This document shows, one piece after another, positions 1,809-62,553 of a stretch of 64,000 bases of DNA. The notes under the pieces were generated by a model. It did not search any database, was not told the DNA's origin, and worked only from the letters and a program-made list of their open reading frames with translations. A program made the translations under genes and the position numbers. Each line of letters starts with the position of its first letter. Position 1 is the stretch's first letter. The stretch is from contig JBDHUC010000004.1 of NCBI GenBank assembly GCA_039808985.1, positions 26,050-90,049 of the forward strand, written 5' to 3'. Source of the DNA: Alphaproteobacteria bacterium (GTDB lineage Bacteria > Pseudomonadota > Alphaproteobacteria > Rickettsiales > SXRF01).

Positions 1809-3626
1809 ATGACCAAAACCTATGGTAAATCCACCCTTCCCTCCCGCCATGTAACCGAAGGGCCGCAACGTGCTCCGCACCGTTCCTATCTTTACGCCAT
1901 GGGCATAACCGAAGCGGCTATACATGCGCCGCTAGTTGGTGTCGCCACCACCTGGAACGAAGCCGCGCCATGCAACATCACTCTCGCCCGTCAGGCGCAG
2001 GTGGTAAAAAAAGGCGTGGCGGCAGCAGGTGGAACCCCTCGTGAATTTACGACAATCACCGTAACCGATGGCATCGCAATGGGGCACCAGGGCATGAAAT
2101 CATCGCTGGTTTCGCGTGAGGTGATAGCCGATTCGGTCGAGCTTACCATGCGCGGCCATTCCTATGACGCACTGGTCGGGCTTGCAGGCTGCGATAAATC
2201 CCTGCCCGGCCTGATGATGGCTATGGTTCGCCTGAACGTGCCCAGCGTATTCATCTATGGCGGCTCTATACTTCCGGGAAAATTCAAGGGCAAACAGGTG
2301 ACTGTTGTCGATGTATTCGAAGGGGTGGGAAGCCACAGCGCGGGCAATATGAGCGAAGAAGATCTGCACGAGCTGGAACAGGTCGCCTGCCCATCGGCTG
2401 GTTCATGCGGCGGGCAGTTCACCGCCAACACCATGGCCTGCGTGTCCGAAGCCATAGGCCTTGCCCTGCCCGGCTCCGCTGGTGCTCCTGCGCCTTATGA
2501 ATCGCGTGACCAGTTTGGGTTCGAGTCTGGCCGCGCGGTTATGGAACTGCTCAAAAACAAAATCCGCCCGCGCGATATAGTCACCCGCAAGGCATTGGAA
2601 AACGCCGCAGCAGTGGTCGCGGCAACCGGCGGTTCGACCAATGCAGCGCTTCACCTGCCAGCTATCGCCAATGAATGCGGCATTGACTTTGACATCCACG
2701 CGGTCGGCGAAGTATTCAAGCGCACCCCATACCTTGCCGATTTGATGCCCGGCGGCAAATATTCCGCCAAGGATATGTATGAGGCAGGCGGCGTTCAGAT
2801 AGTTCTCAAAACCCTGCTTGACGGCGGCTACCTCCATGGCGATGGCCTGACCGTAACCGGAAAAACAATGGCCGAGAATTTGAAAAATGTAAAATTCCCT
2901 ACATTCCGTCATCCTGTGAATCACTCCAGTGATTGCACAGGATCTAAGACGGCAAAAGATCCTGCGCAACCGCTTCGCCCCTCGCAGGATGACAGTGAGG
3001 GCCAGAATGTTGTCCGTCCCTATAACGACCCGATAACCCCAACCGGCGGCGTAGTAGTGCTTAAAGGCAACCTTGCCCCGGAAGGAGCAATCGTAAAAGT
3101 CGCAGGCATGAAGAATCTGGTATTTAAAGGCACCGCGCTATGTTTTGATTGCGAGGAAGATGCCTTCGCTGCGGTCGAGAAAAAGCAATATAAGGAAGGC
3201 GATGTTATAGTCATACGTTATGAAGGCCCACGCGGCGGCCCAGGTATGCGCGAAATGCTATCAACCACCGCTGCCCTCTATGGGCAGGGCGCTGGCGATA
3301 AGGTAGCGCTTATAACTGATGGTCGTTTTTCCGGCGGCACCCGTGGTTTCTGCATAGGCCATGTCGGCCCCGAAGCGGCAGTTGGCGGCCCTATCGGCCT
3401 GCTAAAGAACGGCGATGTTATAACTATTGATGCAACAAACTCCACCATCCATGTTGAACTTTCCGATGCCGAACTGGAAAAACGCCGCGCAGAATGGAAA
3501 CCACGCAGAAATGATTACGGCTCCGGCGCATTGTGGAAATACGCGCAGATCGTAGGCCCGGCAGAAAAAGGCGCGCTGACTCATCCCGGCGCAAACGCAG
3601 AAACCAAAGCCTATGCGGATATTTAA
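1809..3626 (+). CDS. ilvD: dihydroxy-acid dehydratase, carrying an in-frame repeat-element insertion
   Basis: 605-aa ORF with IlvD/Edd signatures throughout ([53 protein letters not shown]). Confidence 0.93.
2908..2993. repeat. Family-C double-hairpin element inserted in-frame in ilvD
   Basis: GTCATCCTGTGA...GCACAGGATCT ... GATCCTGCGCAA...CGCAGGATGAC. The same two-stem architecture occurs in the intergenic copies at 24698-24800, 34574-34662, 6957-7045 and 57040-57152. Confidence 0.8.
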
Positions 3627-5282: not shown

Positions 5283-6796
5283 TTAAGCGCAATGCGCCTG
5301 TAATATTGCTATTTTTGTTTGTTTTAGCTTCTGGCAGTATTACCTTATGCTATATACTCTCGATGCGTTACGAATTGAAAACCAGCGCGGTTGACGGGCT
5401 TTCCTTTGCGCAAATTCTTTTCAACTTCCTGTCTGGCAACGGCTTAACCACAAGCATACCACCGCCTTATATTGAGCAGAACTGGCTAGGCATCCATTTT
5501 TCGCCGATATTATATTTGCTGGCTCCGGTTTATTATTTTTCCCCCCATATCGAAACATTGCTAACCATCCAAAGTTTTGGCATTGCCCTGGCCGCTATCC
5601 CATTATTTCTTGCCTCCAGGACATTACTGAAATCTCAGTGGTACGCCCTTGTAATTGCAATATTTTATCTCACAAACCCCTTTGTAATAAATGCCCAGAT
5701 ATGGGATTTCCACGAAATAGCATTTGCCCCCTTGGTAATCTCCATGATTTTATGGTCTGTTATCCATAAAAACAGAAAATACTTTATTATTTTTTGCACC
5801 ATACTGCTTACAATCAAAGAGCATTACGGCCTAGCTGTATTTGGCTCCGGGCTGCTCTGGGCTTATTACTGGCGCGATGTAAAATTCGGTATGGCAGTTG
5901 CTGCTTTAGGGCTTTTATTTCTGGCTCTTGTTATAGGCATGATTATGCCGCATTTTAGTCCACTTGGTTCTGCGCTTATGCTCAGCAATCAAAAAACCGT
6001 CGGTTTTTTCAACTGGCTGGGCCATCCTTTTGCCGATAGTGATTTATTAGCAAGGCAGGTGGTTAATGGCATATTTTATGGAATAATGATTGTCCTGCCC
6101 CTCTGGTTCCAGCCGCTATTATCCTTTACCTGGCTCTTGCCAGCCATGGCTGATATAGCAACTAACACATTATCTATCAACGACCTGATGCGTGCGCCAC
6201 AATCATACCATACGGCTGCAATTATACCTATTTTGCTTGTTGCCTATGCTAAAACCCTCTCAAACCGCTATAGCGCAGCAAGCAAATTAAAAATTTCCGA
6301 TATGTTGATCGCAACGGCTGCCTTATCGGCATTTTTTTCTTATAGCTTTACTGCATTGCCCAATTTACCTAACAATTCGTTTGAATTATCTAAATTTAAA
6401 TTTTCACTTCCACCGGCTGACAAATCTGTGCGTGATGAGATAATAAAAATCATCGGGCCAGATTCATCTATTGCCGGACCAATGAATATACTTCCTCAAA
6501 TTCCTGTACGTAGAAATATGTACCTTTTTCCTGATAGGTATGAAGACGCTGATTATATTGTAATAAACACCCGGATTGTTTTTGAAAAGCGCCCTGCCTA
6601 TTTTACTGAAAAGCATTTCCAGGCACTGAAGGAAATAATGGGCGATAAGAACTGGACAGTTGCCTTTTACCGTGACAACTGGCTTTTATTCAAGCATGGC
6701 GGCAAGGAAAATACCGAATTATCAGCTAGAGCTGCTGATGATTTGCAGAAATTACAGGTAAAAGTCATGGAACATAACAAAAAACTGCATAATTAA
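5279..6796 (+). CDS. polytopic membrane protein, DUF2079-like
   Basis: 505 aa with roughly 12 hydrophobic segments. GIHFSPILYLLAPVYYF and DFHEIAFAPL resemble the DUF2079 core as I recall it. ATGA overlap with the methyltransferase gene. Confidence 0.5.
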   Translation: MIKRNAPVILLFLFVLASGSITLCYILSMRYELKTSAVDGLSFAQILFNFLSGNGLTTSIPPPYIEQNWLGIHFSPILYLLAPVYYFSPHIETLLTIQSFGIALAAIPLFLASRTLLKSQWYALVIAIFYLTNPFVINAQIWDFHEIAFAPLVISMILWSVIHKNRKYFIIFCTILLTIKEHYGLAVFGSGLLWAYYWRDVKFGMAVAALGLLFLALVIGMIMPHFSPLGSALMLSNQKTVGFFNWLGHPFADSDLLARQVVNGIFYGIMIVLPLWFQPLLSFTWLLPAMADIATNTLSINDLMRAPQSYHTAAIIPILLVAYAKTLSNRYSAASKLKISDMLIATAALSAFFSYSFTALPNLPNNSFELSKFKFSLPPADKSVRDEIIKIIGPDSSIAGPMNILPQIPVRRNMYLFPDRYEDADYIVINTRIVFEKRPAYFTEKHFQALKEIMGDKNWTVAFYRDNWLLFKHGGKENTELSARAADDLQKLQVKVMEHNKKLHN

Positions 6797-6802
6797 ATGC
6801 GG

Positions 6803-7060
6803 CCATCCTGTGAGGCGCGCAACGGCAACAACGTCATCCTGCAAATTCGTAAGTATTGCGCAGGATCTCATGATATTTTCTCAGTTTGTCATGCCGCCGG
6901 ATGGCGGTATCCGGTATTAAGCCCCAGACCCCGCAACAAATGCGGGGCGACAGTTTCCGTCCTGTGAGGCGCGCAACGACTGCACAGAATCTGTATCAAT
7001 AATCCTGATATCCTGCGCAATTGCCACTGCAATTCGCAGGACGACACCCACTCACACTAA
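6803..7060. repeat. Nested cluster of family-C and family-D elements
   Basis: Truncated C hairpin-1 arm (6803-6824), reverse C hairpin-2 (6833-6871), reverse D double hairpin (6886-6952), then a complete C element (6957-7045) with the ACACCCACTCACACTA tail. Confidence 0.8.
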
Positions 7061-7093
7061 CGCCCACACCAACCAACAGCCCTTCACAAATTT

Positions 7094-8485
7094 TCACCCT
7101 ACCTTTTCCTCAGCAGTGGCAATTCCCAGCAATTTAAGCTTGCGGTGCAAGGCCGAGCGTTCCATACCCACAAAAGAAGATGTGCGAGAAATATTCCCGC
7201 CAAAACGTTCTATCTGCGCGGCCAGATATTGTTTTTCGAACAGCTCCCGGGCTTCACGCAACACCATCGACATAATATCGGCATTAGTTTCCGGACGCGC
7301 CAGCACAGGGTTTGAAGTCAGTATTTCCGGCGGCAACTCGTCAGCGGTAATATTTTCTGTTTTCCCGGTAGTCATGATAAGCAGCCATTCCATCATATTA
7401 CGAAGCTGGCGCACATTCCCCGGCCAGCTATATGCCTGAAGCATAACAATAGCTTCCTGCGACAGCGAGCGCACAGGCAAACCAGCGATTTCAGAAGCCC
7501 GTTTTAAAAAATAGCTGCAAAGCTCTGGTATATCTTCGCGGCGTTCCTTAAGCGATGGGATACGAACCGGAACCACATTAAGCCGGTAATACAGATCTTC
7601 GCGGAAGCGTCCGGCAGCAATTTCATTTTCCAGATTATGGTTGCTGGCAGCAATAACCCGCACATCAACTTCCACCTTCTGTTTGCCACGCTGGCGGGTA
7701 AAGCTCTGCTCCTGTAATGCCCGCAGGATTTTTCCCTGTATTTCCAGCGGCAGGTCAAGCACCTCGTCAATAAACAATGTGCCATTATGTGCGCGTTCCA
7801 GAAGCCCAAGTTTTTCTGCTCCTCCGGTCGGATTCGTATCCTCGATACCAAATAATTCCGCTTCAACCCGGTCCGCGGTTAAGCCGGAAACATTCATAAC
7901 CACGAAATTAGCGGCTGAACGTGTTGATTTAGCGTGGATCATCCTCGCGTACATTTCTTTGCCAGTTCCCGGAGCGCCAGTTATAAGCACCCGGCTGGCG
8001 GTTGGCGCAATTTTTTCCAACGCATTGCGAAGCTGTTGTACGGTCTGGGAAGTGCCATTTAGCTGCATTTCAAACTTGCCGCGTGATTTAAGCTCAGTAT
8101 TTTCATTGCGCAGCTTGGCATTTTCCAGTGCGCGGGCGACAACCAGAAGCAGCCTATCCTCTTTAAATGGTTTTTCGATAAAATCATAAGCCCCCATTTT
8201 AATAGCCGAAACCGCAGTTTCTATATTTCCATGGCCGCTTATCATAATAACCGGAATATGGGGATATTTCTTCTTAACCATTTCCAGTATTCCAAGCCCA
8301 TCAAGCTCGCTGCCCTGCAACCATATATCCAGGACTATAGCCGACGGCACACGTTCAGCGAGCGCTTTGAATGCAAAATCACTGTTATGAGCCACTCTTG
8401 TGTCATATTTAGCATCTTTAAGAATATCGGAGATTAATTCGCGGATGTCTGCTTCATCATCAATAATCAATATGTCAGCGGTCAT
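7094..8485 (-). CDS. ntrX: sigma-54-interacting response regulator NtrX
   Basis: Receiver (ILIIDDEADIRE...VLDIWLQG), AAA+ (ITGAPGTGKE) and a C-terminal HTH. Strong resemblance to alphaproteobacterial NtrX, and it lies downstream of ntrY. Confidence 0.85.
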   Translation of the reverse strand: MTADILIIDDEADIRELISDILKDAKYDTRVAHNSDFAFKALAERVPSAIVLDIWLQGSELDGLGILEMVKKKYPHIPVIMISGHGNIETAVSAIKMGAYDFIEKPFKEDRLLLVVARALENAKLRNENTELKSRGKFEMQLNGTSQTVQQLRNALEKIAPTASRVLITGAPGTGKEMYARMIHAKSTRSAANFVVMNVSGLTADRVEAELFGIEDTNPTGGAEKLGLLERAHNGTLFIDEVLDLPLEIQGKILRALQEQSFTRQRGKQKVEVDVRVIAASNHNLENEIAAGRFREDLYYRLNVVPVRIPSLKERREDIPELCSYFLKRASEIAGLPVRSLSQEAIVMLQAYSWPGNVRQLRNMMEWLLIMTTGKTENITADELPPEILTSNPVLARPETNADIMSMVLREARELFEKQYLAAQIERFGGNISRTSSFVGMERSALHRKLKLLGIATAEEKVG

Positions 8486-8898
8486 ATTACCTCTAGTTGC
8501 AAGTAATTAGTGGTTAGTGATAAGTCATCAGAAGAAACAAGCTTTTTATGTAATGATTTTTGCAATCCATTCACCATGCGCCCTACCTCATCTGCGCTTT
8601 CTTTTAATATATCAAGATTTTCTATGCTTATAAAACCTAGATTTTTAGCAATAACAAGCTGTGTCTGTAATTCTGCAAGCGAGCCATTGCTAATGCTTAT
8701 AAATCTTAAAAAATCCTTTGTGCTTTCCCGACAAGAGCCTTCCGCTATATTGCTTGGTATTGAAACAGCGGCTCTGCGCATTTGCGCTGTAAGGCCATAT
8801 ATTTCTTCCTTAGGAAAAGATGCAGTGCAGTTATAAACCTGCGTTACAAGATTTACAGCTTTTTGCCAGACTTTTAGTTCCTCGTAATAATGTGCCAC
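8482..8898 (-). CDS. four-helix-bundle protein (23S rRNA intervening-sequence protein / Avd superfamily)
   Basis: GTG start with AGGAAA upstream. KVWQKA...FPKEEIYGLTAQMRRAAVSIPSNIAEG...GSLAELQTQL is the canonical TIGR02436/PF05635 pattern. Its stop overlaps the ntrX ATG (ATGA). Confidence 0.85.
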   Translation of the reverse strand: MAHYYEELKVWQKAVNLVTQVYNCTASFPKEEIYGLTAQMRRAAVSIPSNIAEGSCRESTKDFLRFISISNGSLAELQTQLVIAKNLGFISIENLDILKESADEVGRMVNGLQKSLHKKLVSSDDLSLTTNYLQLEVI

Positions 8899-24697: not shown

Positions 24698-24800
24698 GTC
24701 ATCCTGTGGACGGCGAAGCCGTAGCACAGGATCTGTTCAACAACCCTGAGATCCTGCGCAATGCTTACGCATTCGCAGGATGACACCCCACACTCACACT
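24698..24800. repeat. Family-C double-hairpin element (complete, intergenic)
   Basis: GTCATCCTGTGGACGGCGAAGCCGTAGCACAGGATCT...GAGATCCTGCGCAATGCTTACGCATTCGCAGGATGAC plus the ACCCCACACTCACACTA tail. Confidence 0.85.
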
Positions 24801-24804
24801 AGCC

Positions 24805-26443: not shown

Positions 26444-26454
26444 ACTGTATTGTC

Positions 26455-26634
26455 ATACTGCGAATGCGTAATCATTGAGCAGGATCTCAGGATTATTGAG
26501 CAGATTACTCCACCTCCTCAAAAACCATTCTTGTCATTCCCGCCTTGAGCGGGAATCCAGAAACAAACCCATCGTAATAAATTGTAGCGCTACCTACCCG
26601 CCTACGCGACATGACAAGTAGAGGCTGTGATACC
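26455..26634. repeat. Family-C half element (26455-26503) followed by a D-variant MITE (26528-26634) flanked by a 24-bp direct duplication
   Basis: ATTACTCCACCTCCTCAAAAACCA occurs at 26504-26527 and 26635-26658. The insert has CTTGTCAT...ATGACAAG ends. Confidence 0.8.
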
Positions 26635-26635
26635 A

Positions 26636-27787
26636 TTACTCCACCTCCTCAAAAACCACCTGCTTGGTTTTGGGATTGAGCGAAAGCTTCAGCTTTCCTT
26701 GCAAAAGCAGTTGCGCCTCGCGCCCGAACACATCATTGCGCCAGCCCTGCAATACCATTATATCAGTTTTCCCAAGCGCCAGCGCTTCCAATTCATCCTT
26801 CCCGGTTATAAGCGGCGCGGCGATACCATGCACATCGGCTTTAACTTTCAGCAAAAGCTGGAGCATAGCAACCAAGCTGGTGATATTTTCCGGCGGCTTG
26901 CGCGATTTACCTACCTGCGGCCATTCGGTCTGCGGCAGTGCAAGCGCAGCTTCTACGCAGGCAAAAACCTGGTCGGCCTTTGTTTTGGAAAGATTCTTAT
27001 CAACACTACGCATACGCGCCAGGTCAGCGGCTTTACGCGGCAGTGCCGATGCCAGCTCCACTAACGCTTCATCTTTTAATATCCTCCCGCGCGGCACATC
27101 ATTCTTACGCGCTTCGATCTCGCGCCACTGTGCCAGCTCGCGCAGAACAGCTAAATGTTTAGGGCGCATAGTTCCGTATTTTAATCTCTTCCACGCATTG
27201 TTCGGCTCTATCTGGTAAAGTGCCGGGTCGGAAAGCTGGATATGTTCCTCGGCTATCCATGATGTCCGCCCTGCTTCTTCGATCTGTTTTTTCAGGCTCT
27301 CATAGATCGTACGCAGGAAGGTAACATCGGAAAGCGCGTAAGTGAGTTGCTTTTCTGTAAGCGGGCGCGCTGACCAATCAGTAAAACGTGAACTTTTATC
27401 AAGATCCTGCCCCACTATCTTGTTCACCAGAGTTTCATAAGAAACCGATTCGCCATAACCACACACCGAAGCCGCGATCTGAGTATCAAAAATATTTACC
27501 GGTATCGCCCCCGAAAGCAGGTAGAAAATTTCAATATCCTGACGGCAGGCATGGAAAACTTTTACCAGATCAGGTTTTTGCAATAGTGCAAATACAGGCT
27601 CAAGCTTAATCCCTGCTGCCAGCGGATCTATTATCGCTGCATCATCTTTTCCGGCTATCTGTATCAGGCATAATTTAGGAAAATATGTCTTGTCGCGGAT
27701 AAATTCTGTATCCACGGTGACATATGCCCCGGCTTCCACCTGCGCGCAAAATTTTGTAAGTTCTGATTGTTTAGTTATAAGATTCAT
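26636..27787 (-). CDS. rnd: ribonuclease D
   Basis: DEDDy 3'-5' exonuclease motifs (VTVDTEF, HACRQDIE, YALSDV) plus an HRDC region. The ATG at 27787 is preferred over the TTG at 27805. Confidence 0.85.
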   Translation of the reverse strand: MNLITKQSELTKFCAQVEAGAYVTVDTEFIRDKTYFPKLCLIQIAGKDDAAIIDPLAAGIKLEPVFALLQKPDLVKVFHACRQDIEIFYLLSGAIPVNIFDTQIAASVCGYGESVSYETLVNKIVGQDLDKSSRFTDWSARPLTEKQLTYALSDVTFLRTIYESLKKQIEEAGRTSWIAEEHIQLSDPALYQIEPNNAWKRLKYGTMRPKHLAVLRELAQWREIEARKNDVPRGRILKDEALVELASALPRKAADLARMRSVDKNLSKTKADQVFACVEAALALPQTEWPQVGKSRKPPENITSLVAMLQLLLKVKADVHGIAAPLITGKDELEALALGKTDIMVLQGWRNDVFGREAQLLLQGKLKLSLNPKTKQVVFEEVE

Positions 27788-27912
27788 GGGGCTTTTATAG
27801 TGCAAAACTCAACAAAAGCCAGAGGCTTTGCATAAAATAGCTATAATTGTGAGTTTCCGGTTGGTTTGACGGCAAATTATGATATATTAACATTATTTAA
27901 CGGAGCTATTTA

Positions 27913-34440: not shown

Positions 34441-34463
34441 GCAAATCCATCAGTGGGATTTGC
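34441..34463. repeat. Family-B solo hairpin next to the tRNA-His 5' end
   Basis: GCAAATCCATCAGTGGGATTTGC. The same stem occurs at 241-260, 59385-59406 and 61082-61101. Confidence 0.75.
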
Positions 34464-34573: not shown

Positions 34574-34662
34574 GTCATCCCGCAAATGCGTAAGCATTGC
34601 GCAGGATCTCGGGATTATTGATACAGATCCTGTGCTACGGCTTCGTCGCCCGCAGAATGACT
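34574..34662. repeat. Family-C double-hairpin element (inverted orientation)
   Basis: GTCATCCCGCAAATGCGTAAGCATTGCGCAGGATCTC...GATCCTGTGCTACGGCTTCGTCGCCCGCAGAATGAC. Confidence 0.8.
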
Positions 34663-40714: not shown

Positions 40715-40722
40715 TTATAGCT

Positions 40723-40800
40723 CAGGATTCGGGATTCAGAATTCAGGAAGTAAGGGAGTTTTCCTTTCCCCTGACCTCTGAATCCCGAATCCTGACCCCT
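40723..40800. repeat. GATTCAG/GAATCCTGA heptamer-rich hairpin without cargo, downstream of flbD
   Basis: CAGGATTCGGGATTCAGAATTCAGG...CCTGACCTCTGAATCCCGAATCCTGACCCCTG. The arms match the inverted repeats at 62106-62138 and 62529-62553. Confidence 0.8.
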
Positions 40801-40842
40801 GTTTCGCGGAGCGAAACCAATGCCTGAGGCCACCGCAACAGC

Positions 40843-41216
40843 TTTAACTTGTCACCCCGCCGAATGGCGGGGTCTGGGACCAATATGAAAGAATATAATT
40901 ATTATGTTTATATTATGGCAAAAGAGCGAAACAGCACATTTTATACTGGCGTGACTAATAATTTAATCCGCCGCGTTTATGAGCATAAAAATGACTTAGC
41001 CGATGGTTTTACTAAAAAATATGGGATAAAAACTTTGGTATATTACGAACATCATAGCAATATAAATTCAGCAATACACCGAGAAAAATTAATAAAAAAA
41101 TGGAAGCGTGAGTATAAACTCAATGCCATTGAACAACTGAATCCTGACTGGAATGATTTATATTTAGATTTAATAAGGCCAGACCCCGCTATTCGGCGGG
41201 GTTACATTCACGAAAT
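40843..41216. mobile_element. GIY-YIG cassette bounded by family-D hairpins and flanked by a 34-bp direct duplication
   Basis: GAGCGAAACCAATGCCTGAGGCCACCGCAACAGC occurs at 40809-40842 and 41217-41250. The terminal hairpins are CTTGTCACCCCGCCGAATGGCGGGGTCTGG and CCAGACCCCGCTATTCGGCGGGGTTACATTC. Confidence 0.75.
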
Positions 41217-41235
41217 GAGCGAAACCAATGCCTGA
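40885..41235 (+). CDS. GIY-YIG nuclease family protein (COG2827/YhbQ-like)
   Basis: YYVYIMAKERNSTFYTGVTNNLIRRVYEHKN...FTKKYGIKTLVYYE...REKLIKKW is the canonical small GIY-YIG pattern. The ATG at 40885 is preferred over the TTG at 40849. The 3' end overlaps the flhA start. Confidence 0.85.
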   Translation: MKEYNYYVYIMAKERNSTFYTGVTNNLIRRVYEHKNDLADGFTKKYGIKTLVYYEHHSNINSAIHREKLIKKWKREYKLNAIEQLNPDWNDLYLDLIRPDPAIRRGYIHEMSETNA

Positions 41236-43369
41236 GGCCACCGCAACAGCAGCGCCAGCGCAGATTGACTGGCTTGCCCGTGTAAATTCCCTATCACGGC
41301 GCAAGGATATTTATTTTGCGGTTGGCATCATAGCGATACTTGTGGTGTTGATACTTCCGCTGCCATCCTTCCTGCTTGATTTTTTCCTTGGAATTTCCAT
41401 CACCCTTTCAGTTATAATCCTTATGACGGTTCTGTTCGTGGAAAAGCCGCTGCATATGAGCTCCTTCCCCACAATATTGCTTATCGTCACCATGTTGAGG
41501 CTATCACTGAACATAGCTTCAACCCGCCTTATCCTCGCGCATGGGCATGAAGGCACGGCAGCAGCCGGACACGTGATACAGGCCTTTGGCGGCTTCGTAA
41601 TGGGCGGCTCTGTAGTAATCGGCGTTATAATTTTTGGCATACTAACCATCATCAATTTTGTGGTAATCACCAAAGGCTCTGGCCGCATTGCCGAAGTATC
41701 GGCGCGCTTTTCATTAGATGCGATGCCGGGCAAGCAGATGGCTATCGACGCTGACCTGTCAGCAGGCCTCATAACCGAGGAAATGGCCAAAATGCGGCGC
41801 AAGGAAATCGAAGATGAAAGTAATTTCTTCGGCTCGATGGACGGTGCAAGTAAGTTTGTGCGCGGCGATGCGATAGCAGGCCTCCTCATCACCTTTATCA
41901 ACTTTATTGCCGGGATTATTATTGGTGTTGCGCAAAAGGGCCTGCCATTTAATGAAGCGCTCAACCATTACACAGTACTGACTGTCGGCGATGGCCTGGT
42001 ATCACAGATACCAGCGCTAATAGTTTCCACTGCCGCCGGTATACTTGTCACCAAATCAGGTGTTGCCGGTTCAGCCGAAAAAGCGGTACTTGGCCAACTG
42101 AGCCGACACCCGGCAGCCCTTGGCATAACCAGCGTGTTCCTGCTTATGATGTCGGTTCTGCCGGGCATTCCTTTTGTGCCGTTTTTCCTGCTTTCCTGCA
42201 TAACCGGGTTTGGCAGCTATTATCTTTTTAATAACCCGCAGGCCATTAATCCGAAAACCGGCGAGGCCTATCCTTCAGGCACAGCTCCCAAACAAATAGA
42301 AGGCCCGGCAAAAGATGGGGAAGCGCCGAAAACCGAAGAACAGCCAGCCGATTTTTTACAGATTGATTCGTTGCGCCTTGAGCTTGGTTACGGCCTTCTG
42401 CCTCTTATAAACTACCAGAAAGGGCACCGCCTTACCGAGCAAATCAAGGCACTTCGCCGCCAGATGGCACGTGAGCTTGGCTTTATTATCCCTTCTGTAC
42501 GCATTCAGGATAATATGCAGTTACCGCCCAATACTTACGTGGTGAAGGTAAAGGAAATAGAAGCGGCGCGTGGCGACATCCGCCCGGAAATGTTGCTGGT
42601 AATGAACCCAAGCGGCGGGAAAATCACTCTGCCCGGCGAAGAAACAACTGAGCCCACCTTTGGCCTGCCAGCCATGTGGATAAACGAAAACCACCGCGAA
42701 GAAGCTTTGTTCCGCAATTTTACAGTGGTCGACCCGCCTACAATTATTACCACCCATCTGACCGAAGTAATTAAAGACAATATGGCCGAGCTGCTTTCCT
42801 ACGCGGAAACGCAGAAGCTGCTCGATGACCTTGGAAAAACCCAGCAGAAGCTCGTTTCCGAAACCATCCCATCGCAGATAAGCGTTGGCGGCGTGCAGCG
42901 CGTGCTGCAAAACCTCCTGCGTGAGCTGGTTTCCATCCGCGACCTGTCCACCATTATCGAGGCTATCGCCGAAGCCTCGCGCACCACCCAGAATATAAGC
43001 CTGATAAGCGAACATGTGCGCAGCCGCCTTGGCCGCCAGATAAGCCACAGCCAGACCACCGATGGCGGGTATATCCCCATAATCGCTATGTCGCCGGGCT
43101 GGGAACAAACCTTTATTGAAGCGCTTAGCGGCAATGCTGATGACCGCACACTGTCAATGGCCCCAAGCCGCATCCAGGAATTCATCAATAATGTACGTGC
43201 AAGCTTTGATAAATTCGCCATGCAGGGAGAAAGCCCGGTACTGCTAACCAGCCCGGTTATCCGCCCTTATGTGCGCTCGATAGTTGAGCGTTTCCGCCCC
43301 AGCACCGTTGTCATGTCGCAGAATGAAATCTATGCCAAGGCGCGGATAAAAACACTGGGGCAATTATGA
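41228..43369 (+). CDS. flhA: flagellar export apparatus protein FlhA
   Basis: FHIPEP family: FPTILLIVTMLRLSLNIASTRLIL, GRIAEVSARFSLDAMPGKQMAIDADL. 713 aa. Confidence 0.95.
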   Translation: MPEATATAAPAQIDWLARVNSLSRRKDIYFAVGIIAILVVLILPLPSFLLDFFLGISITLSVIILMTVLFVEKPLHMSSFPTILLIVTMLRLSLNIASTRLILAHGHEGTAAAGHVIQAFGGFVMGGSVVIGVIIFGILTIINFVVITKGSGRIAEVSARFSLDAMPGKQMAIDADLSAGLITEEMAKMRRKEIEDESNFFGSMDGASKFVRGDAIAGLLITFINFIAGIIIGVAQKGLPFNEALNHYTVLTVGDGLVSQIPALIVSTAAGILVTKSGVAGSAEKAVLGQLSRHPAALGITSVFLLMMSVLPGIPFVPFFLLSCITGFGSYYLFNNPQAINPKTGEAYPSGTAPKQIEGPAKDGEAPKTEEQPADFLQIDSLRLELGYGLLPLINYQKGHRLTEQIKALRRQMARELGFIIPSVRIQDNMQLPPNTYVVKVKEIEAARGDIRPEMLLVMNPSGGKITLPGEETTEPTFGLPAMWINENHREEALFRNFTVVDPPTIITTHLTEVIKDNMAELLSYAETQKLLDDLGKTQQKLVSETIPSQISVGGVQRVLQNLLRELVSIRDLSTIIEAIAEASRTTQNISLISEHVRSRLGRQISHSQTTDGGYIPIIAMSPGWEQTFIEALSGNADDRTLSMAPSRIQEFINNVRASFDKFAMQGESPVLLTSPVIRPYVRSIVERFRPSTVVMSQNEIYAKARIKTLGQL

Positions 43370-43378
43370 ACAAGCTAT

Positions 43379-43450
43379 CAGGATTCAGGATTCAGGATTC
43401 AGGGAATAATTCTTGCTGCCTGACCTCTGAATCCCGACCTCTGAACCCTG
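43379..43450. repeat. GATTCAG/GAATCCTGA heptamer-rich hairpin without cargo, flhA-flhF spacer
   Basis: CAGGATTCAGGATTCAGGATTCAGGG...CCTGACCTCTGAATCCCGACCTCTGAACCCTG. Confidence 0.8.
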
Positions 43451-47336: not shown

Positions 47337-47443
47337 CTAGAGCGTTTTCGCTTTAGTTGTGCGTTAGGCATCCGAGGCGAAGTGTACAATAGTACATGAG
47401 ACGAAGGATAACAACACGCACGATTAAATGGAAAATGCTCTAG
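47337..47443. repeat. Family-A palindromic element (about 107 bp, MITE-like), intact copy
   Basis: CTAGAGCGTTTTCGCTTTAGTTGTGCGTTAGGCATCCGAGGCGAAGTGTACAATAGTACATGAGACGAAGGATAACAACACGCACGATTAAATGGAAAATGCTCTAG. A second copy lies at 59331-59497. Confidence 0.85.
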
Positions 47444-56104: not shown

Positions 56105-56968
56105 ATGCAGGGTTTTATAAATAATGCGATTGAGTCATGGATATATATTGGTCCATACCTGTTTGGCTTTTTTATAATTTTTTCCGCCCTTGCTTATTTT
56201 ATGCCATGCAATAAGGGGCAGCCGTTTTTACACAGGGGCACAGTAATAGACCTGCTTTACGGCCTGATAATACCGCTTTTCAGCCGATACGTAAACATGC
56301 TGTTCTTAATCTTAGGTTTTTCGATATTTTTCTATTCAACCTCAAAGGAACAGCTCCAGGATTATTTGAATAATGGACACGGGCTGGCGAAGGAATTACC
56401 ATTATGGCTACAGGCTGCGCTGGTATTCCTGCTTTCTGATATAATCCTGTACTGGACGCACCGTTTTTTCCATACTCCGCGCATGTGGCGCTGGCATGCT
56501 ATACATCATTCGGCAAAAATAGTTGATTGGCTTACCAGCTACCGTTTCCATCCCATAAATATCTGGTTTTCATTCACCATGACCGACACCATCATGCTCC
56601 TTCTGGGTTTTTCGCCAGCCGCAATAGGCACAATGGGGCTTTTCAATATGGCCTACTCTTTTATGGTTCATGCTAACCTGAATTGGACTTTCGGCCCATT
56701 CCGTTATATTTTCGCCAGCCCGGTTTTTCACCGCTGGCATCACACTACGCAAAAGGAAGGGCTGGATAAAAATTTTGCTCCCACCTTTCCGCTTCTTGAT
56801 GTTATGTTTGGAACATTCTATATGCCCGAAGGAAAACTTCCGGAAACTTATGGTGTGCTTGGTGCCGCAATACCGGAATCATTCATAGGCCAGCTAATAT
56901 GGCCATTCAGGAAAGAAAACCAGCCATCATCCTGTGAGGCGCGGAGCGACCACCTGTCACCCCGCTGA
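56105..56968 (+). CDS. fatty acid hydroxylase / sterol desaturase superfamily membrane protein
   Basis: Histidine boxes HRFFH, HAIHH and HRWHH. The last about 14 codons and the stop lie in repeat elements. Confidence 0.8.
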   Translation: MQGFINNAIESWIYIGPYLFGFFIIFSALAYFMPCNKGQPFLHRGTVIDLLYGLIIPLFSRYVNMLFLILGFSIFFYSTSKEQLQDYLNNGHGLAKELPLWLQAALVFLLSDIILYWTHRFFHTPRMWRWHAIHHSAKIVDWLTSYRFHPINIWFSFTMTDTIMLLLGFSPAAIGTMGLFNMAYSFMVHANLNWTFGPFRYIFASPVFHRWHHTTQKEGLDKNFAPTFPLLDVMFGTFYMPEGKLPETYGVLGAAIPESFIGQLIWPFRKENQPSSCEARSDHLSPR

Positions 56969-57152
56969 ATAGCGGGGTCTGGGCCTTAGGCTTAATACCG
57001 GATGCCGCCATACGGCGATATGACAAGCTGGGAAAACATCCTGAGATCCTGCGCAATGTTTACGCATTCGCAGGACGACACCCACACTATCCCCTGTGAA
57101 GCGCGCCGCCACAAAACAGTCATCCTGTGAGGAGCGGAGCGACTGCACAGGA
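56927..57152. repeat. Nested cluster of family-C and family-D elements
   Basis: C hairpin-1 5' arm (56927-56950), D double hairpin (56952-57028), C hairpin-2 plus tail (57040-57092), then a complete C hairpin-1 (57119-57152). Confidence 0.8.
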
Positions 57153-59242: not shown

Positions 59243-59536
59243 TTGTCATACCGGGCTTGAGCCAGGATCCATGGCTACAAATTCCATCGGCGAATACTCC
59301 CTGGATCCCCCGCCTGCGCGGTGATGACAACTAGAGCGTTTTCGCTTTAGTTGTGCGTTAGGCATCCGAGGCGAAGTGTACACAGCAAATCCACATGTGG
59401 GATTTGCTTTTTATAAATTACAAAATCCCGCATGCGGATTTTGTTAGTACATGAGACGAAGGATAACAACACGCACGATTAAATGGAAAATGCTCTAACT
59501 AATTACGAACTACGAAATACTAATTACGAATTATGG
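59243..59536. repeat. Stack of four repeat elements between fabF and mltG
   Basis: D-variant (59243-59330), family A (59331-59497) interrupted by family B (59383-59447), then a TAATTACGAA-type heptamer tract (59497-59536). Confidence 0.8.
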
Positions 59537-62088: not shown

Positions 62089-62105
62089 TTTTGTCCTCAT
62101 GTTTA

Positions 62106-62553
62106 GGGATTCAGGATTTAGGATTCAGGATTCGGGGGAAGAAAGTTTTTTATCCAGACTTTTTATAAGCCCATTGAGCATTTTTCCAACTTCCATATAT
62201 CCATTAAATAAATACAATATTGCTTGCTCAGTTGTGTAACCTAAATCACTGGCAATATAAAGCTGTGTTTCAACTTCAGCAACAGAACCATAAGCTATAT
62301 CAAGAAAGCGCATGTATTCTTTGGTAGTCCTGCGTGATTTTCCTTCAGCTATATTCGATGGAACAGAAACAGCCGCCCTTTGTAATTGACTGGATAAACC
62401 ATATAATTCTTCTTTTGGAAATGTCTTTGTTAACTTATAAACAGCAGCGACCAAAACCCTTGATTTCTGCCAAACTTCCAAATCACGATAACTATTAATA
62501 TTCATAATCTTATCTTGAATTTTCTCTGCCCCCTGAATCCTGACCCCTGAATC
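62106..62553. mobile_element. Inverted-repeat-bounded cassette carrying a four-helix-bundle gene between fabD and fabG
   Basis: Left arm GGGATTCAGGATTTAGGATTCAGGATTCGGGGG (62106-62138). Right arm CCCCCTGAATCCTGACCCCTGAATC (62529-62553) abuts the fabD stop codon. Confidence 0.55.
62125..62505 (-). CDS. four-helix-bundle protein (23S rRNA intervening-sequence protein / Avd superfamily)
   Basis: YRDLEVWQKS...FPKEELYGLSSQLQRAAVSVPSNIAEG...GSVAEVETQL. Paralog of 8482-8898. Confidence 0.88.
   Translation of the reverse strand: MNINSYRDLEVWQKSRVLVAAVYKLTKTFPKEELYGLSSQLQRAAVSVPSNIAEGKSRRTTKEYMRFLDIAYGSVAEVETQLYIASDLGYTTEQAILYLFNGYMEVGKMLNGLIKSLDKKLSSPES

Follow-up and report, generated by a model that had tools for sequence, protein, structure and literature searches.

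A nest of tagged hairpins with long flanking repeats in an alphaproteobacterial genome and a candidate GIY-YIG partner

Architecture of the hairpin nest

We examined a 64,000-nt stretch (the window) of contig JBDHUC010000004.1 from an alphaproteobacterial genome assembly (GCA_039808985.1), in which a cluster of six CGTC/TGTC-tagged hairpin units of the repetitive extragenic palindrome (REP) type occupies positions 6803-7065, between convergent genes. The nearest database relatives of the NtrX protein encoded in the window are metagenome-assembled genomes labeled Rickettsiales bacterium. The right part of the cluster is a complete element of the hairpin family designated C (6957-7045 plus tail), the first 22 nt of which are present again 154 nt upstream (Table 1). 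The two copies are identical at 21 of 22 positions and enclose an insert of 132 nt (6825-6956). An earlier note, made from the sequence alone, had described these repeats, their single mismatch, and the insert, and its coordinates and sequences proved exact. When folded as single-stranded DNA, positions 6796-7070 give the expected row of hairpins (z = -3.67). Because independent assemblies carry the same arrangement, it is not an assembly artefact of the window: contig CAYPGX010000072 (GCA_964410315.1) extends across both repeats as far as window position 7018 and carries a single substitution, and two Logan assemblies match up to 6915.

The insert contains a composite unit, in which a C-type hairpin-2 is followed by a diverged spacer (spacer*) and a doublet of a second family, D. 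A site equivalent to this nest (locus 1), but in the opposite orientation, had been proposed at 56927-57152 (locus 2), and it is real: the same composite stands reversed between 24-nt direct repeats that match at 23 of 24 positions, the right copy (TCATCCTGTGAGGAGCGGAGCGAC) lying at 57120-57143. Besides the composite, the 169-nt insert at locus 2 holds a C tail and a third hairpin-1 fragment. This degenerate fragment (57089-57112), which is 67% identical to the locus 2 repeats and is followed by AAAACA, appears to be a scar left by an earlier event at this hairpin. The repeat cluster also encodes the C-terminal 14 residues (56926-56968) of a fatty-acid hydroxylase open reading frame (ORF).

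Table 1. Coordinates of the hairpin elements, flanking repeats, and associated features in the window.
Feature	Position	Strand	Details
Locus 1, left direct repeat CCATCCTGTGAGGCGCGCAACG	6803-6824	+	Remnant of the tag, then the 5' arm and 12 loop nt of C hairpin-1; without 3' arm
Locus 1, filler GCAACAAC	6825-6832	.	Left repeat to insert; read directly
Locus 1, C-type hairpin-2 (GTCATCCTGC..GCAGGATC)	6833-6867	+	Tag to the left; first part of the composite
Locus 1, spacer* TCATGATATTTTCTCAGTT	6868-6886	.	19 nt; diverged C spacer common to all three composites
Locus 1, D doublet	6887-6952	.	TGTCATGCCGCC..GGCGGTATCCGG 6887-6914 (+); inverted TGTCGCCCCGC..GCGGGGTCTGG 6924-6952 (-)
Locus 1, filler GTTT	6953-6956	.	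D to right repeat
Locus 1, right direct repeat CCGTCCTGTGAGGCGCGCAACG	6957-6978	+	First 22 nt of complete C hairpin-1
Locus 1, complete C element	6957-7065	+	Hairpin-1 6957-6991, spacer 6992-7009, inverted hairpin-2 7010-7045, tail ACCCACTCACACTA.. to ~7065
Locus 2, left direct repeat TCATCCTGTGAGGCGCGGAGCGAC	56927-56950	+	Hairpin-1 5' arm and 14 nt of loop; also encodes the last residues of hydroxylase ORF 56105-56968
Locus 2, composite, reversed	56955-57079	-	D doublet 56955-57025, spacer* 57026-57044, hairpin-2 57045-57079
Locus 2, C tail ACCCACACTA, degenerate third hairpin-1 fragment, and filler AAAACA	57080-57118	+	
Locus 2, solo complete hairpin-1	57119-57152	+	Contains the right direct repeat
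E doublet with flanking repeats	26504-26658	+	Doublet TGTCATTCCCGC..ATGACA 26532-26616; perfect 24-nt direct repeats 26504-26527, 26635-26658
GIY-YIG cassette	40809-41250	+	Perfect 34-nt direct repeats 40809-40842, 41217-41250
D-type inverted terminal hairpins of the cassette	40850-40877, 41179-41206		28 nt, TGTCACCCCGCCGAATGGCGGGGTCTGG and complement (93% complementary)
Intact GIY-YIG ORF	40915-41235		PF01541, E = 3.5e-10
Reference complete C element with tail	24698-24801	+	No flanking repeat
Complete C element, reversed	34574-34662	-	No flanking repeat
Complete C doublet inside ilvD (ORF 1809-3626)	2908-2993		

Hairpin families and the CGTC superfamily

Every unit follows a common plan: a (C/T)GTC tag precedes an 8-bp stem, which mostly starts with AT, and after the loop and the returning stem strand comes a short tail. 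In family C, hairpin-1 (GTCATCCTGTG, a 16-nt loop, CACAGGATC) is followed by a spacer of ~18 nt, an inverted hairpin-2 (GATCCTGCGCAAT..ATTCGCAGGATGAC), and the tail ACCCCACACTCACACTA. Family D is a doublet of TGTCACCCCGC..GCGGGGTCTGG and inverted TGTCATRYCGCC..GGCGGYATCCGG, and family E (26532-26616) begins TGTCATTCCCGCCTTGAGCGGGAATCCAG. The plan recalls the CGTC-tagged REPs defined in 2013 by Di Nocera, De Gregorio, and Rocco, which carry an unpaired CGTC tag (often TGTC or CCTC), stems of 8-9 bp that start with AT (the first two positions being complementary A and T), loops of 4-5 nt, and a CCA tail (PMC3733652). Members of that superfamily, which takes in Neisseria dRS3 and the Rickettsia palindromic elements (RPEs) RPE-4 and RPE-6, are mostly inverted dimers, occur mostly in alphaproteobacteria, and include copies within genes; clusters are rare, and families with other loops were noted (PMC3733652). 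They "apparently lack a dedicated transposase" and show no link to REP-associated tyrosine transposase (RAYT) genes, so that their mover was left as a question (PMC3733652).

The window contains C, D, and E doublets and ~20 units in its 64 kb, dispersed and mostly arranged as inverted dimers. All 12 C units, four D hairpin-1, two D hairpin-2, and the E unit start with (C/T/G)GTC(A/G). The stems of C (ATCCTGYG / CRCAGGAT), E (ATTCCCGC / GCGGGAAT), and D hairpin-2 (ATGCCGCC / GGCGGTAT) have the 8-9 bp of the superfamily; the D hairpin-1 stem starts with AC (ACCCCGC), as in a Sphingobium unit. Loops span 4-6 nt in D and 5 nt in E, in line with the definition, but 11-17 nt in C, where they include an inner stem or bulge and lie outside the 4-5 nt definition. 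Against the CCA consensus, tails read CCA in E, CTG in D hairpin-1, CCG in D hairpin-2, and CTC or CTG in C. Judged by these features, the units belong to the CGTC-tagged REP superfamily: E (TGTC-ATTCCCGC-CTTGA-GCGGGAAT-CCA) matches its definition letter for letter, D is close, and C deviates by its long, structured loops. The common ends (T)GTCAT..ATGAC(A) that the earlier note had ascribed to C, D, and E do not extend to the hairpin-1 side of D, which reads TGTCAC or TGTCGC.

Could the cluster be a functional transcript element under selection, such as a terminator or stabilizer array or a structured RNA, with the repeat there by design? Its place between convergent genes, its strong fold, and the frequent transcription of REPs (PMC3733652) would suit such a role, but Rfam returned nothing relevant for the region at the gathering threshold or even at E = 10. 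Furthermore, the cluster is absent from relatives whose NtrX is 90-97% identical, which have a small ORF there. Units also occur in both orientations and within genes. We consider a selected transcript element very improbable, and the structured-RNA reading was rejected on these grounds of non-conservation, dual orientation, and intragenic occurrence.

The composite as a mobile unit

The proposal of an element-in-element nest is borne out by the composite, a discrete unit with its own derived spacer that is found at three loci, two in the window (6833-6952 and, reversed, 56955-57079) and one in L134, a contig of 1.2 kb from JGI sample 3300028901 that also carries an identical FliN. The last of these was reached by a profile of ORFs running through the composite, which found one protein. 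At each of the three loci, the composite adjoins a C hairpin-1. Its spacer reads ..TTTTCYCAGYT in all three copies versus ..TTGAnACAG in plain C elements, and because this derived spacer is common to all of them, the comparison points to a single origin, in which D would have entered a C element at hairpin-1 and the resulting composite would then have spread. The D copy of L134 differs by 1 nt from 6887-6952, but the neighboring C hairpin-1 has another loop type; the composite, and not the whole cluster, thus appears to be what moved.

A metagenome scan for hairpin-2 yielded 61 loci (505 kb) from many organisms, nearly all with the doublet of hairpin-1, spacer, and hairpin-2. The corresponding scan for the D core returned nothing, although L134 contains it, and a scan of genome contigs with a 15-nt hairpin-2 pattern gave 120 chance matches, with a real hairpin only in L111.

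Long direct repeats around hairpin-ended inserts

At both window loci, the repeat begins at hairpin-1 position 2, inside the tag, and stops at loop position 23 or 25. Among ten hairpin-1 copies, the members of each pair are mutual closest relatives, agreeing at 22 of 25 positions at locus 1 (versus at most 20 to the others) and at 23 of 25 at locus 2 (versus at most 22). Private variants are also shared, namely a C at tag position 2 and the loop GCAACG at locus 1 and the loop GGAGCGAC at locus 2. Given this shared variation and mutual kinship, we infer that each repeat pair consists of local copies of one another, not of two family members landed side by side.

We scanned the window for direct repeats of at least 16 nt, 30-1500 nt apart, and compared the outcome with shuffled sequence. 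Five local repeats were observed (0.45 in shuffles), four of which, with lengths of 22, 24, 24, and 34 nt, flank inserts with (C/T)GTC-hairpin ends; the fifth is an unrelated repeat. In addition to the two nests, the flanked inserts are the E doublet and a cassette encoding a GIY-YIG protein, where the repeats (24 and 34 nt, respectively) are perfect and consist of unique, non-hairpin sequence. The right repeat near E is the 3' end of a gene (26636-27805, minus strand), and a lone C hairpin-2 with spacer (26452-26503) adjoins the left copy. At the cassette, the repeats enclose a 374-nt segment, and the flhA start codon (41228) falls within the right repeat.

Because the duplicated stretches include unique sequence, we attribute the 22-34 nt duplications to the insertion process itself; they are hard to explain otherwise. 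Repeats of similar length at unrelated targets, expected of target-site duplications, were found here (22, 24, 24, and 34 nt) and in a metagenome contig (~25 nt in L211). The 22-nt repeat at locus 1 is therefore probably a target duplication, and the perfect 24- and 34-nt repeats make the long target duplication claimed by the earlier note plausible. We regard a transposition-like insertion with a long target duplication as having an even chance of being the correct account of the nest; that a GIY-YIG protein drives it is more speculative.

Long repeats could also arise if a circular or excised copy bearing a hairpin-1 fragment recombined with the chromosomal hairpin-1, in a Campbell-type or site-specific (att-like) manner, the repeats being the shared core. 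Such a geometry yields exactly a truncated left and a complete right copy, and the left repeat of locus 2 is readable as the composite's own hairpin-1 remnant. Related metagenome loci, moreover, contain long att-like repeats (21 nt at a tRNA 3' end in L150 and 46 nt around a HigBA cassette). However, the repeats at E and at the GIY-YIG cassette are unique gene-end sequence (a gene 3' end and the flhA start), unexpected on a circle, and no recombinase gene lies nearby. On balance, recombination with a circle is rather improbable.

A GIY-YIG gene framed by the same hairpins

Because the 34-nt repeat of the GIY-YIG cassette lies outside both terminal hairpins, the hairpins and the gene appear to have entered together. 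A tblastn search with the window protein against all of the DNA collected found one further copy, in L171 (38% identical), where the gene occupies the exact position of a C spacer, between a C-type hairpin-1 (3137-3172) and hairpin-2 (3467-3501). The family is large, with 10,473 cluster representatives (50% identity) at E <= 0.001. Among the 120 best representatives, 21 contain translations of CGTC hairpins (VIPAKAGIQ, SFPRKRES, LDSRLRGND, WIPAFAGMT) in N- or C-terminal ORF extensions. GIY-YIG genes with CGTC hairpins were seen in three metagenome contigs, L171, L211, and L212; the gene in L211 has 35-nt inverted hairpins (TGTCATTCCAGCGAAAGCTGGAATCCAG, 97% complementary) and the flanking repeat of ~25 nt (84% identity), and the one in L212 has differing hairpins at its two ends.

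A plasmid collection provided 32 records with a GIY-YIG homologue. In 8 of the 12 plasmid or chromid contexts inspected, the gene is bracketed by inverted CGTC hairpins whose tags point outward, each no more than a few tens of nucleotides away: Azospirillum lipoferum 4B, Novosphingobium aromaticivorans pNL2, Rhizobium CIAT894, Shinella, Sphingobium, Aeromonas, Neorhizobium, and Sinorhizobium meliloti pSymB. Several of these hosts also figure among the genomes in which the 2013 survey recorded CGTC REPs (PMC3733652). The machinery shared by the families that the earlier note had suspected is plausible: the (C/T)GTC tag is common to every unit, and hairpins frame a GIY-YIG gene both here (D type) and in L171 (C type). 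We speculate that the cassette is the autonomous partner of the hairpin repeats.

Slx1 is a structure-specific nuclease, and a 2006 survey of GIY-YIG nucleases regarded bacterial standalone Slx1-like proteins as vertically inherited and probably repair enzymes (PMC1564403). A sequence search of the PDB with the window protein gave no match. In the literature, we found no paper tying GIY-YIG proteins to REPs, REP doublets forming hairpins (REPINs), RAYTs, or MITEs (miniature transposable elements with inverted repeats), in a search that covered subscription journals thinly, such that a prior description is possible; a search for typical REP-encoded peptides likewise found no paper.

The GIY-YIG gene might alternatively be a parasite resembling a homing endonuclease that enters the spacers of pre-existing doublets, with the doublets spread in some other way (through a RAYT-like HUH enzyme, say, that acts on single strands and leaves no duplication) and the 22-nt repeat formed by two neighboring family members. 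The position of the L171 gene and the plain C doublets and plasmid cassettes that lack a flanking repeat are compatible with such parasitism. Against it stand the 34-nt repeat outside both terminal hairpins, which has hairpins and gene arriving together, and the private variants shared within the repeat pairs. In addition, the tags are CGTC, not GTAG, and CGTC REPs show no association with RAYT genes (PMC3733652). We judge a homing-type parasite improbable, slightly more so than a recombining circle. A RAYT/REPIN origin of the elements themselves was rejected for the wrong tag (CGTC/TGTC, not GTAG).

The A. lipoferum 4B cassette lies between sufB and sufC and is absent from that position in Azospirillum ramasamyi, Azospirillum oryzae, and strain B510. 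As a separate observation, the sufB-sufC gap (H45-H51) is occupied by a GIY-YIG gene in A. lipoferum 4B and in Shinella PSBB067, by a gene of the DUF559 endonuclease-like type in Sphingomonas parapaucimobilis, and by a gene with a heavy-metal-binding domain in Paracoccus. This gap may be a hot spot for small cassettes.

Evidence against insertion with target duplication

A number of results weigh against a transposition-like insertion with target duplication. The earlier note had called for empty sites in related strains; we sought an empty or C-only state at both nests in relatives and found none, the relatives lacking the whole cluster and differing otherwise too. At locus 1, four relatives with NtrX more than 90% identical (closest, 97% and 93%) have an ORF of 113-151 residues in place of the cluster. 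At locus 2, the best relative (87% identical) has a 7-nt intergenic gap and no repeats; L197 and L198 (4826-4885) have a different 57-nt end of the hydroxylase gene with only 7 nt to the convergent gene, and the window has replaced ~57 nt of the ancestral hydroxylase 3' end. Across relatives with flanking proteins 87-97% identical, no repeats were present at either locus. Contigs of the same species, located via FliN, all have the GIY-YIG cassette or end before it and offer the filled state only.

True empty sites exist elsewhere. The C doublet in ilvD (dihydroxy-acid dehydratase) is in frame and, with 10 flanking bases, adds 96 nt (32 codons); ilvD of the relatives L126, L128, and L133 lacks it (573 aa), and the corresponding codon of L125 is the site of another hairpin element, 51 nt long and of the CTCCCTCTCCC type. 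No flanking duplication accompanies the ilvD insertion. The cassette of A. lipoferum, again with a true empty site, replaced flanking sequence without duplication, and a flanking repeat is absent at 7 of 8 plasmid cassettes; the eighth, that of S. meliloti, has a repeat belonging to a larger repeat family. Flanking repeats are likewise missing from plain C doublets and from solo hairpins, and none was seen at L134, where the composite adjoins a C hairpin-1.

The junctions are also irregular. Element termini do not directly abut the duplication: from repeat to tag, fillers measure 8 and 4 nt at locus 1, 4 (TTCT) and 18 nt at E, 7 and 10 nt at the GIY-YIG cassette, and 4 and ~40 nt at locus 2, which makes 4-18 nt with ~40 nt at one junction. 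Neither the fillers nor the element termini outside the tag are conserved, a pattern that a classical transposase would not leave. The preference for C hairpin-1 put forward in the earlier note comes down to two clear cases, with weaker support from L134, from the one degenerate older fragment, and from L189 (1286-1340, minus strand), where a CGTC-tagged CCCCGC hairpin sits within the loop of a C-type hairpin-1 without duplication. Among 125 complete C hairpin-1 copies in the 505 kb from other organisms, none is split as here. As for the enzyme, we know of no GIY-YIG protein that acts as a transposase.

Much of this irregularity would be expected of template switching, the main rival account, in which a polymerase stalls at hairpin-1 during replication, switches to a different locus with hairpins as template, copies the composite there, and returns to the start of hairpin-1, duplicating its 5' arm and loop, much as arrays of bacterial interspersed mosaic elements (BIMEs) in Escherichia coli have been proposed to grow. 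Hairpin stems supply microhomology everywhere, variable fillers fit, and at the hydroxylase 3' end, as at the A. lipoferum site, sequence was replaced instead of being cleanly interrupted. L180 (2701-2745) also speaks for it: the 5' arm of hairpin-1 is partly duplicated there (10 nt, with 5 nt of filler) and nothing is inserted. The L180 structure may be an excision scar. Template switching does not explain the same composite and the same repeat boundaries appearing twice in opposite orientations, the composite at a third locus too, or the perfect 24- and 34-nt repeats of unique, non-hairpin sequence at E and the GIY-YIG cassette. We hold it to be unlikely, yet the most serious competitor to insertion with target duplication.

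A model for insertion

Under insertion with target duplication, the composite would have arisen once, when D entered hairpin-1 of a C element, and would then have moved as a unit. Each insertion would begin with two breaks or nicks, made in opposite strands at a distance of 22-34 nt: one inside the tag, at the base of the target hairpin, and the other in the 3' part of the loop. The element would be joined or copied in, and gap filling would duplicate the stretch between the breaks; junction filler may be a few nucleotides added by imprecise joining or carried over from the donor flank. More speculatively, the breaks could be made by the small Slx1-like GIY-YIG nuclease encoded between the inverted D-type hairpins at 40850-41206. 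The cassette would then act as an autonomous partner to the C, D, and E doublets, which would be derived from it and non-coding, an arrangement comparable to that of RAYTs and REPINs. Extended to the superfamily, this would make CGTC REPs the non-coding derivatives of a class of prokaryotic mobile element not described so far. The sole gene of such an element would encode a Slx1-like GIY-YIG nuclease of ~90 residues, framed by inverted tagged hairpins, and insertion would proceed through two offset nicks at or near hairpins with 22-34 bp duplications, the nest at 6803-7060 being a fresh product. We offer this extension tentatively, as a possibility that falls short of probable.

Other repeats and small genes

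Further repeats and small insertions were observed in the window and in related loci. Two copies of a 106-nt element with inverted ends CTAGAGCGTTTTC..GAAAATGCTCTAG (47337-47442 and 59331-59497) are 100% identical, and the latter is interrupted at its center by a 61-nt doublet of hairpins of the CAAATCC..GGATTTG type, which makes an empty/filled pair with no long duplication. Hairpins related to this doublet lie at 240-260 and 34442-34462. Another dispersed family consists of long hairpins of heptamer repeats (TCAGGAT / TCGGGAT ...) at 40722-40795, 43378-43450, 62097-62137, and 62524-62549. In other metagenome organisms with C doublets, a 39-nt direct repeat surrounds a CTCCCTCTCCC-type hairpin doublet at a gene 3' end (L160, 3798-4044), and a perfect 46-nt direct repeat surrounds a 727-nt HigB/HigA cassette (L150, 133-951). 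Long duplications around small inserts may be more general. At 8482-8898, between ntrY and ntrX and overlapping the ntrX start, lies a gene for a four-helix protein of the 23S-rRNA-intervening-sequence / bAvd-like type, which is present in the window and L125 and absent from L126, L128, and L133, representing another small gene gained within an operon.

Significance and comparison with known systems

REP-type hairpins are among the commonest bacterial repeats, and the CGTC-tagged half has had no known mobilizing enzyme or insertion signature. The recent insertions in the window, with perfect or near-perfect long duplications, fix the positions of the breaks relative to the target hairpin, and unrelated bacteria share the arrangement in which these hairpins frame a small GIY-YIG gene. 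Should the link to the GIY-YIG gene be true, a standalone family with more than 10,000 clusters at 50% identity, now filed as repair proteins, would consist of selfish elements and would add a sixth chemistry beside the known transposase classes. If it fails, the window still provides a clean, datable example of REP-cluster growth. The nest is real, the reading put forward in the earlier note seems largely on the right track, and the nest points to a testable answer to the question of what moves the CGTC superfamily.

Offset nicking by a GIY-YIG enzyme has a precedent in Penelope-like retroelements, whose GIY-YIG nickase makes the two offset nicks that are the accepted source of their variable, sometimes long target duplications, and Slx1 enzymes cut branched and hairpin DNA. 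Penelope-like elements differ in being eukaryotic and in having a reverse transcriptase, an enzyme that is not present here. RPEs resemble the present units as small palindromic repeats of Rickettsiales-like genomes that insert in frame into genes, as C does in ilvD (2908-2993); RPE-1, however, is longer and unrelated in sequence, and Rickettsia prowazekii and Rickettsia typhi have no CGTC REPs. To our knowledge, no nested insertion with a long duplication has been described for RPEs.

The BIMEs of Escherichia coli are likewise mosaic REP clusters of alternating orientation, and elements of the IS1397, ISKpn1, and IS621 type insert into REP hairpins, targeting the loop. Those are full insertion sequences with duplications of 0-4 bp, whereas hairpin units make up the insert here and 22-24 nt are duplicated. 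The REPIN/RAYT system (REPtron) of gammaproteobacteria offers a likeness in overall design, with inverted doublets of tagged hairpins spread as non-coding copies and, between hairpins of this kind, one small gene for a nuclease. It differs in its GTAG tag and in its enzyme, an IS200/IS605-like tyrosine transposase of the HUH type that works on single-stranded DNA without target duplication, in contrast to the candidate GIY-YIG nuclease and long duplications seen here.

With the CGTC superfamily itself, the units of the window share the tag, AT stem, short tail, inverted dimers, alphaproteobacterial hosts, and intragenic copies. The window departs from that superfamily in the long C loops, in its clusters, in four inserts with 22-34 nt flanking repeats, none having been reported for the superfamily, and in a GIY-YIG gene framed by hairpins where no dedicated enzyme had been reported, a difference that is no argument against membership.

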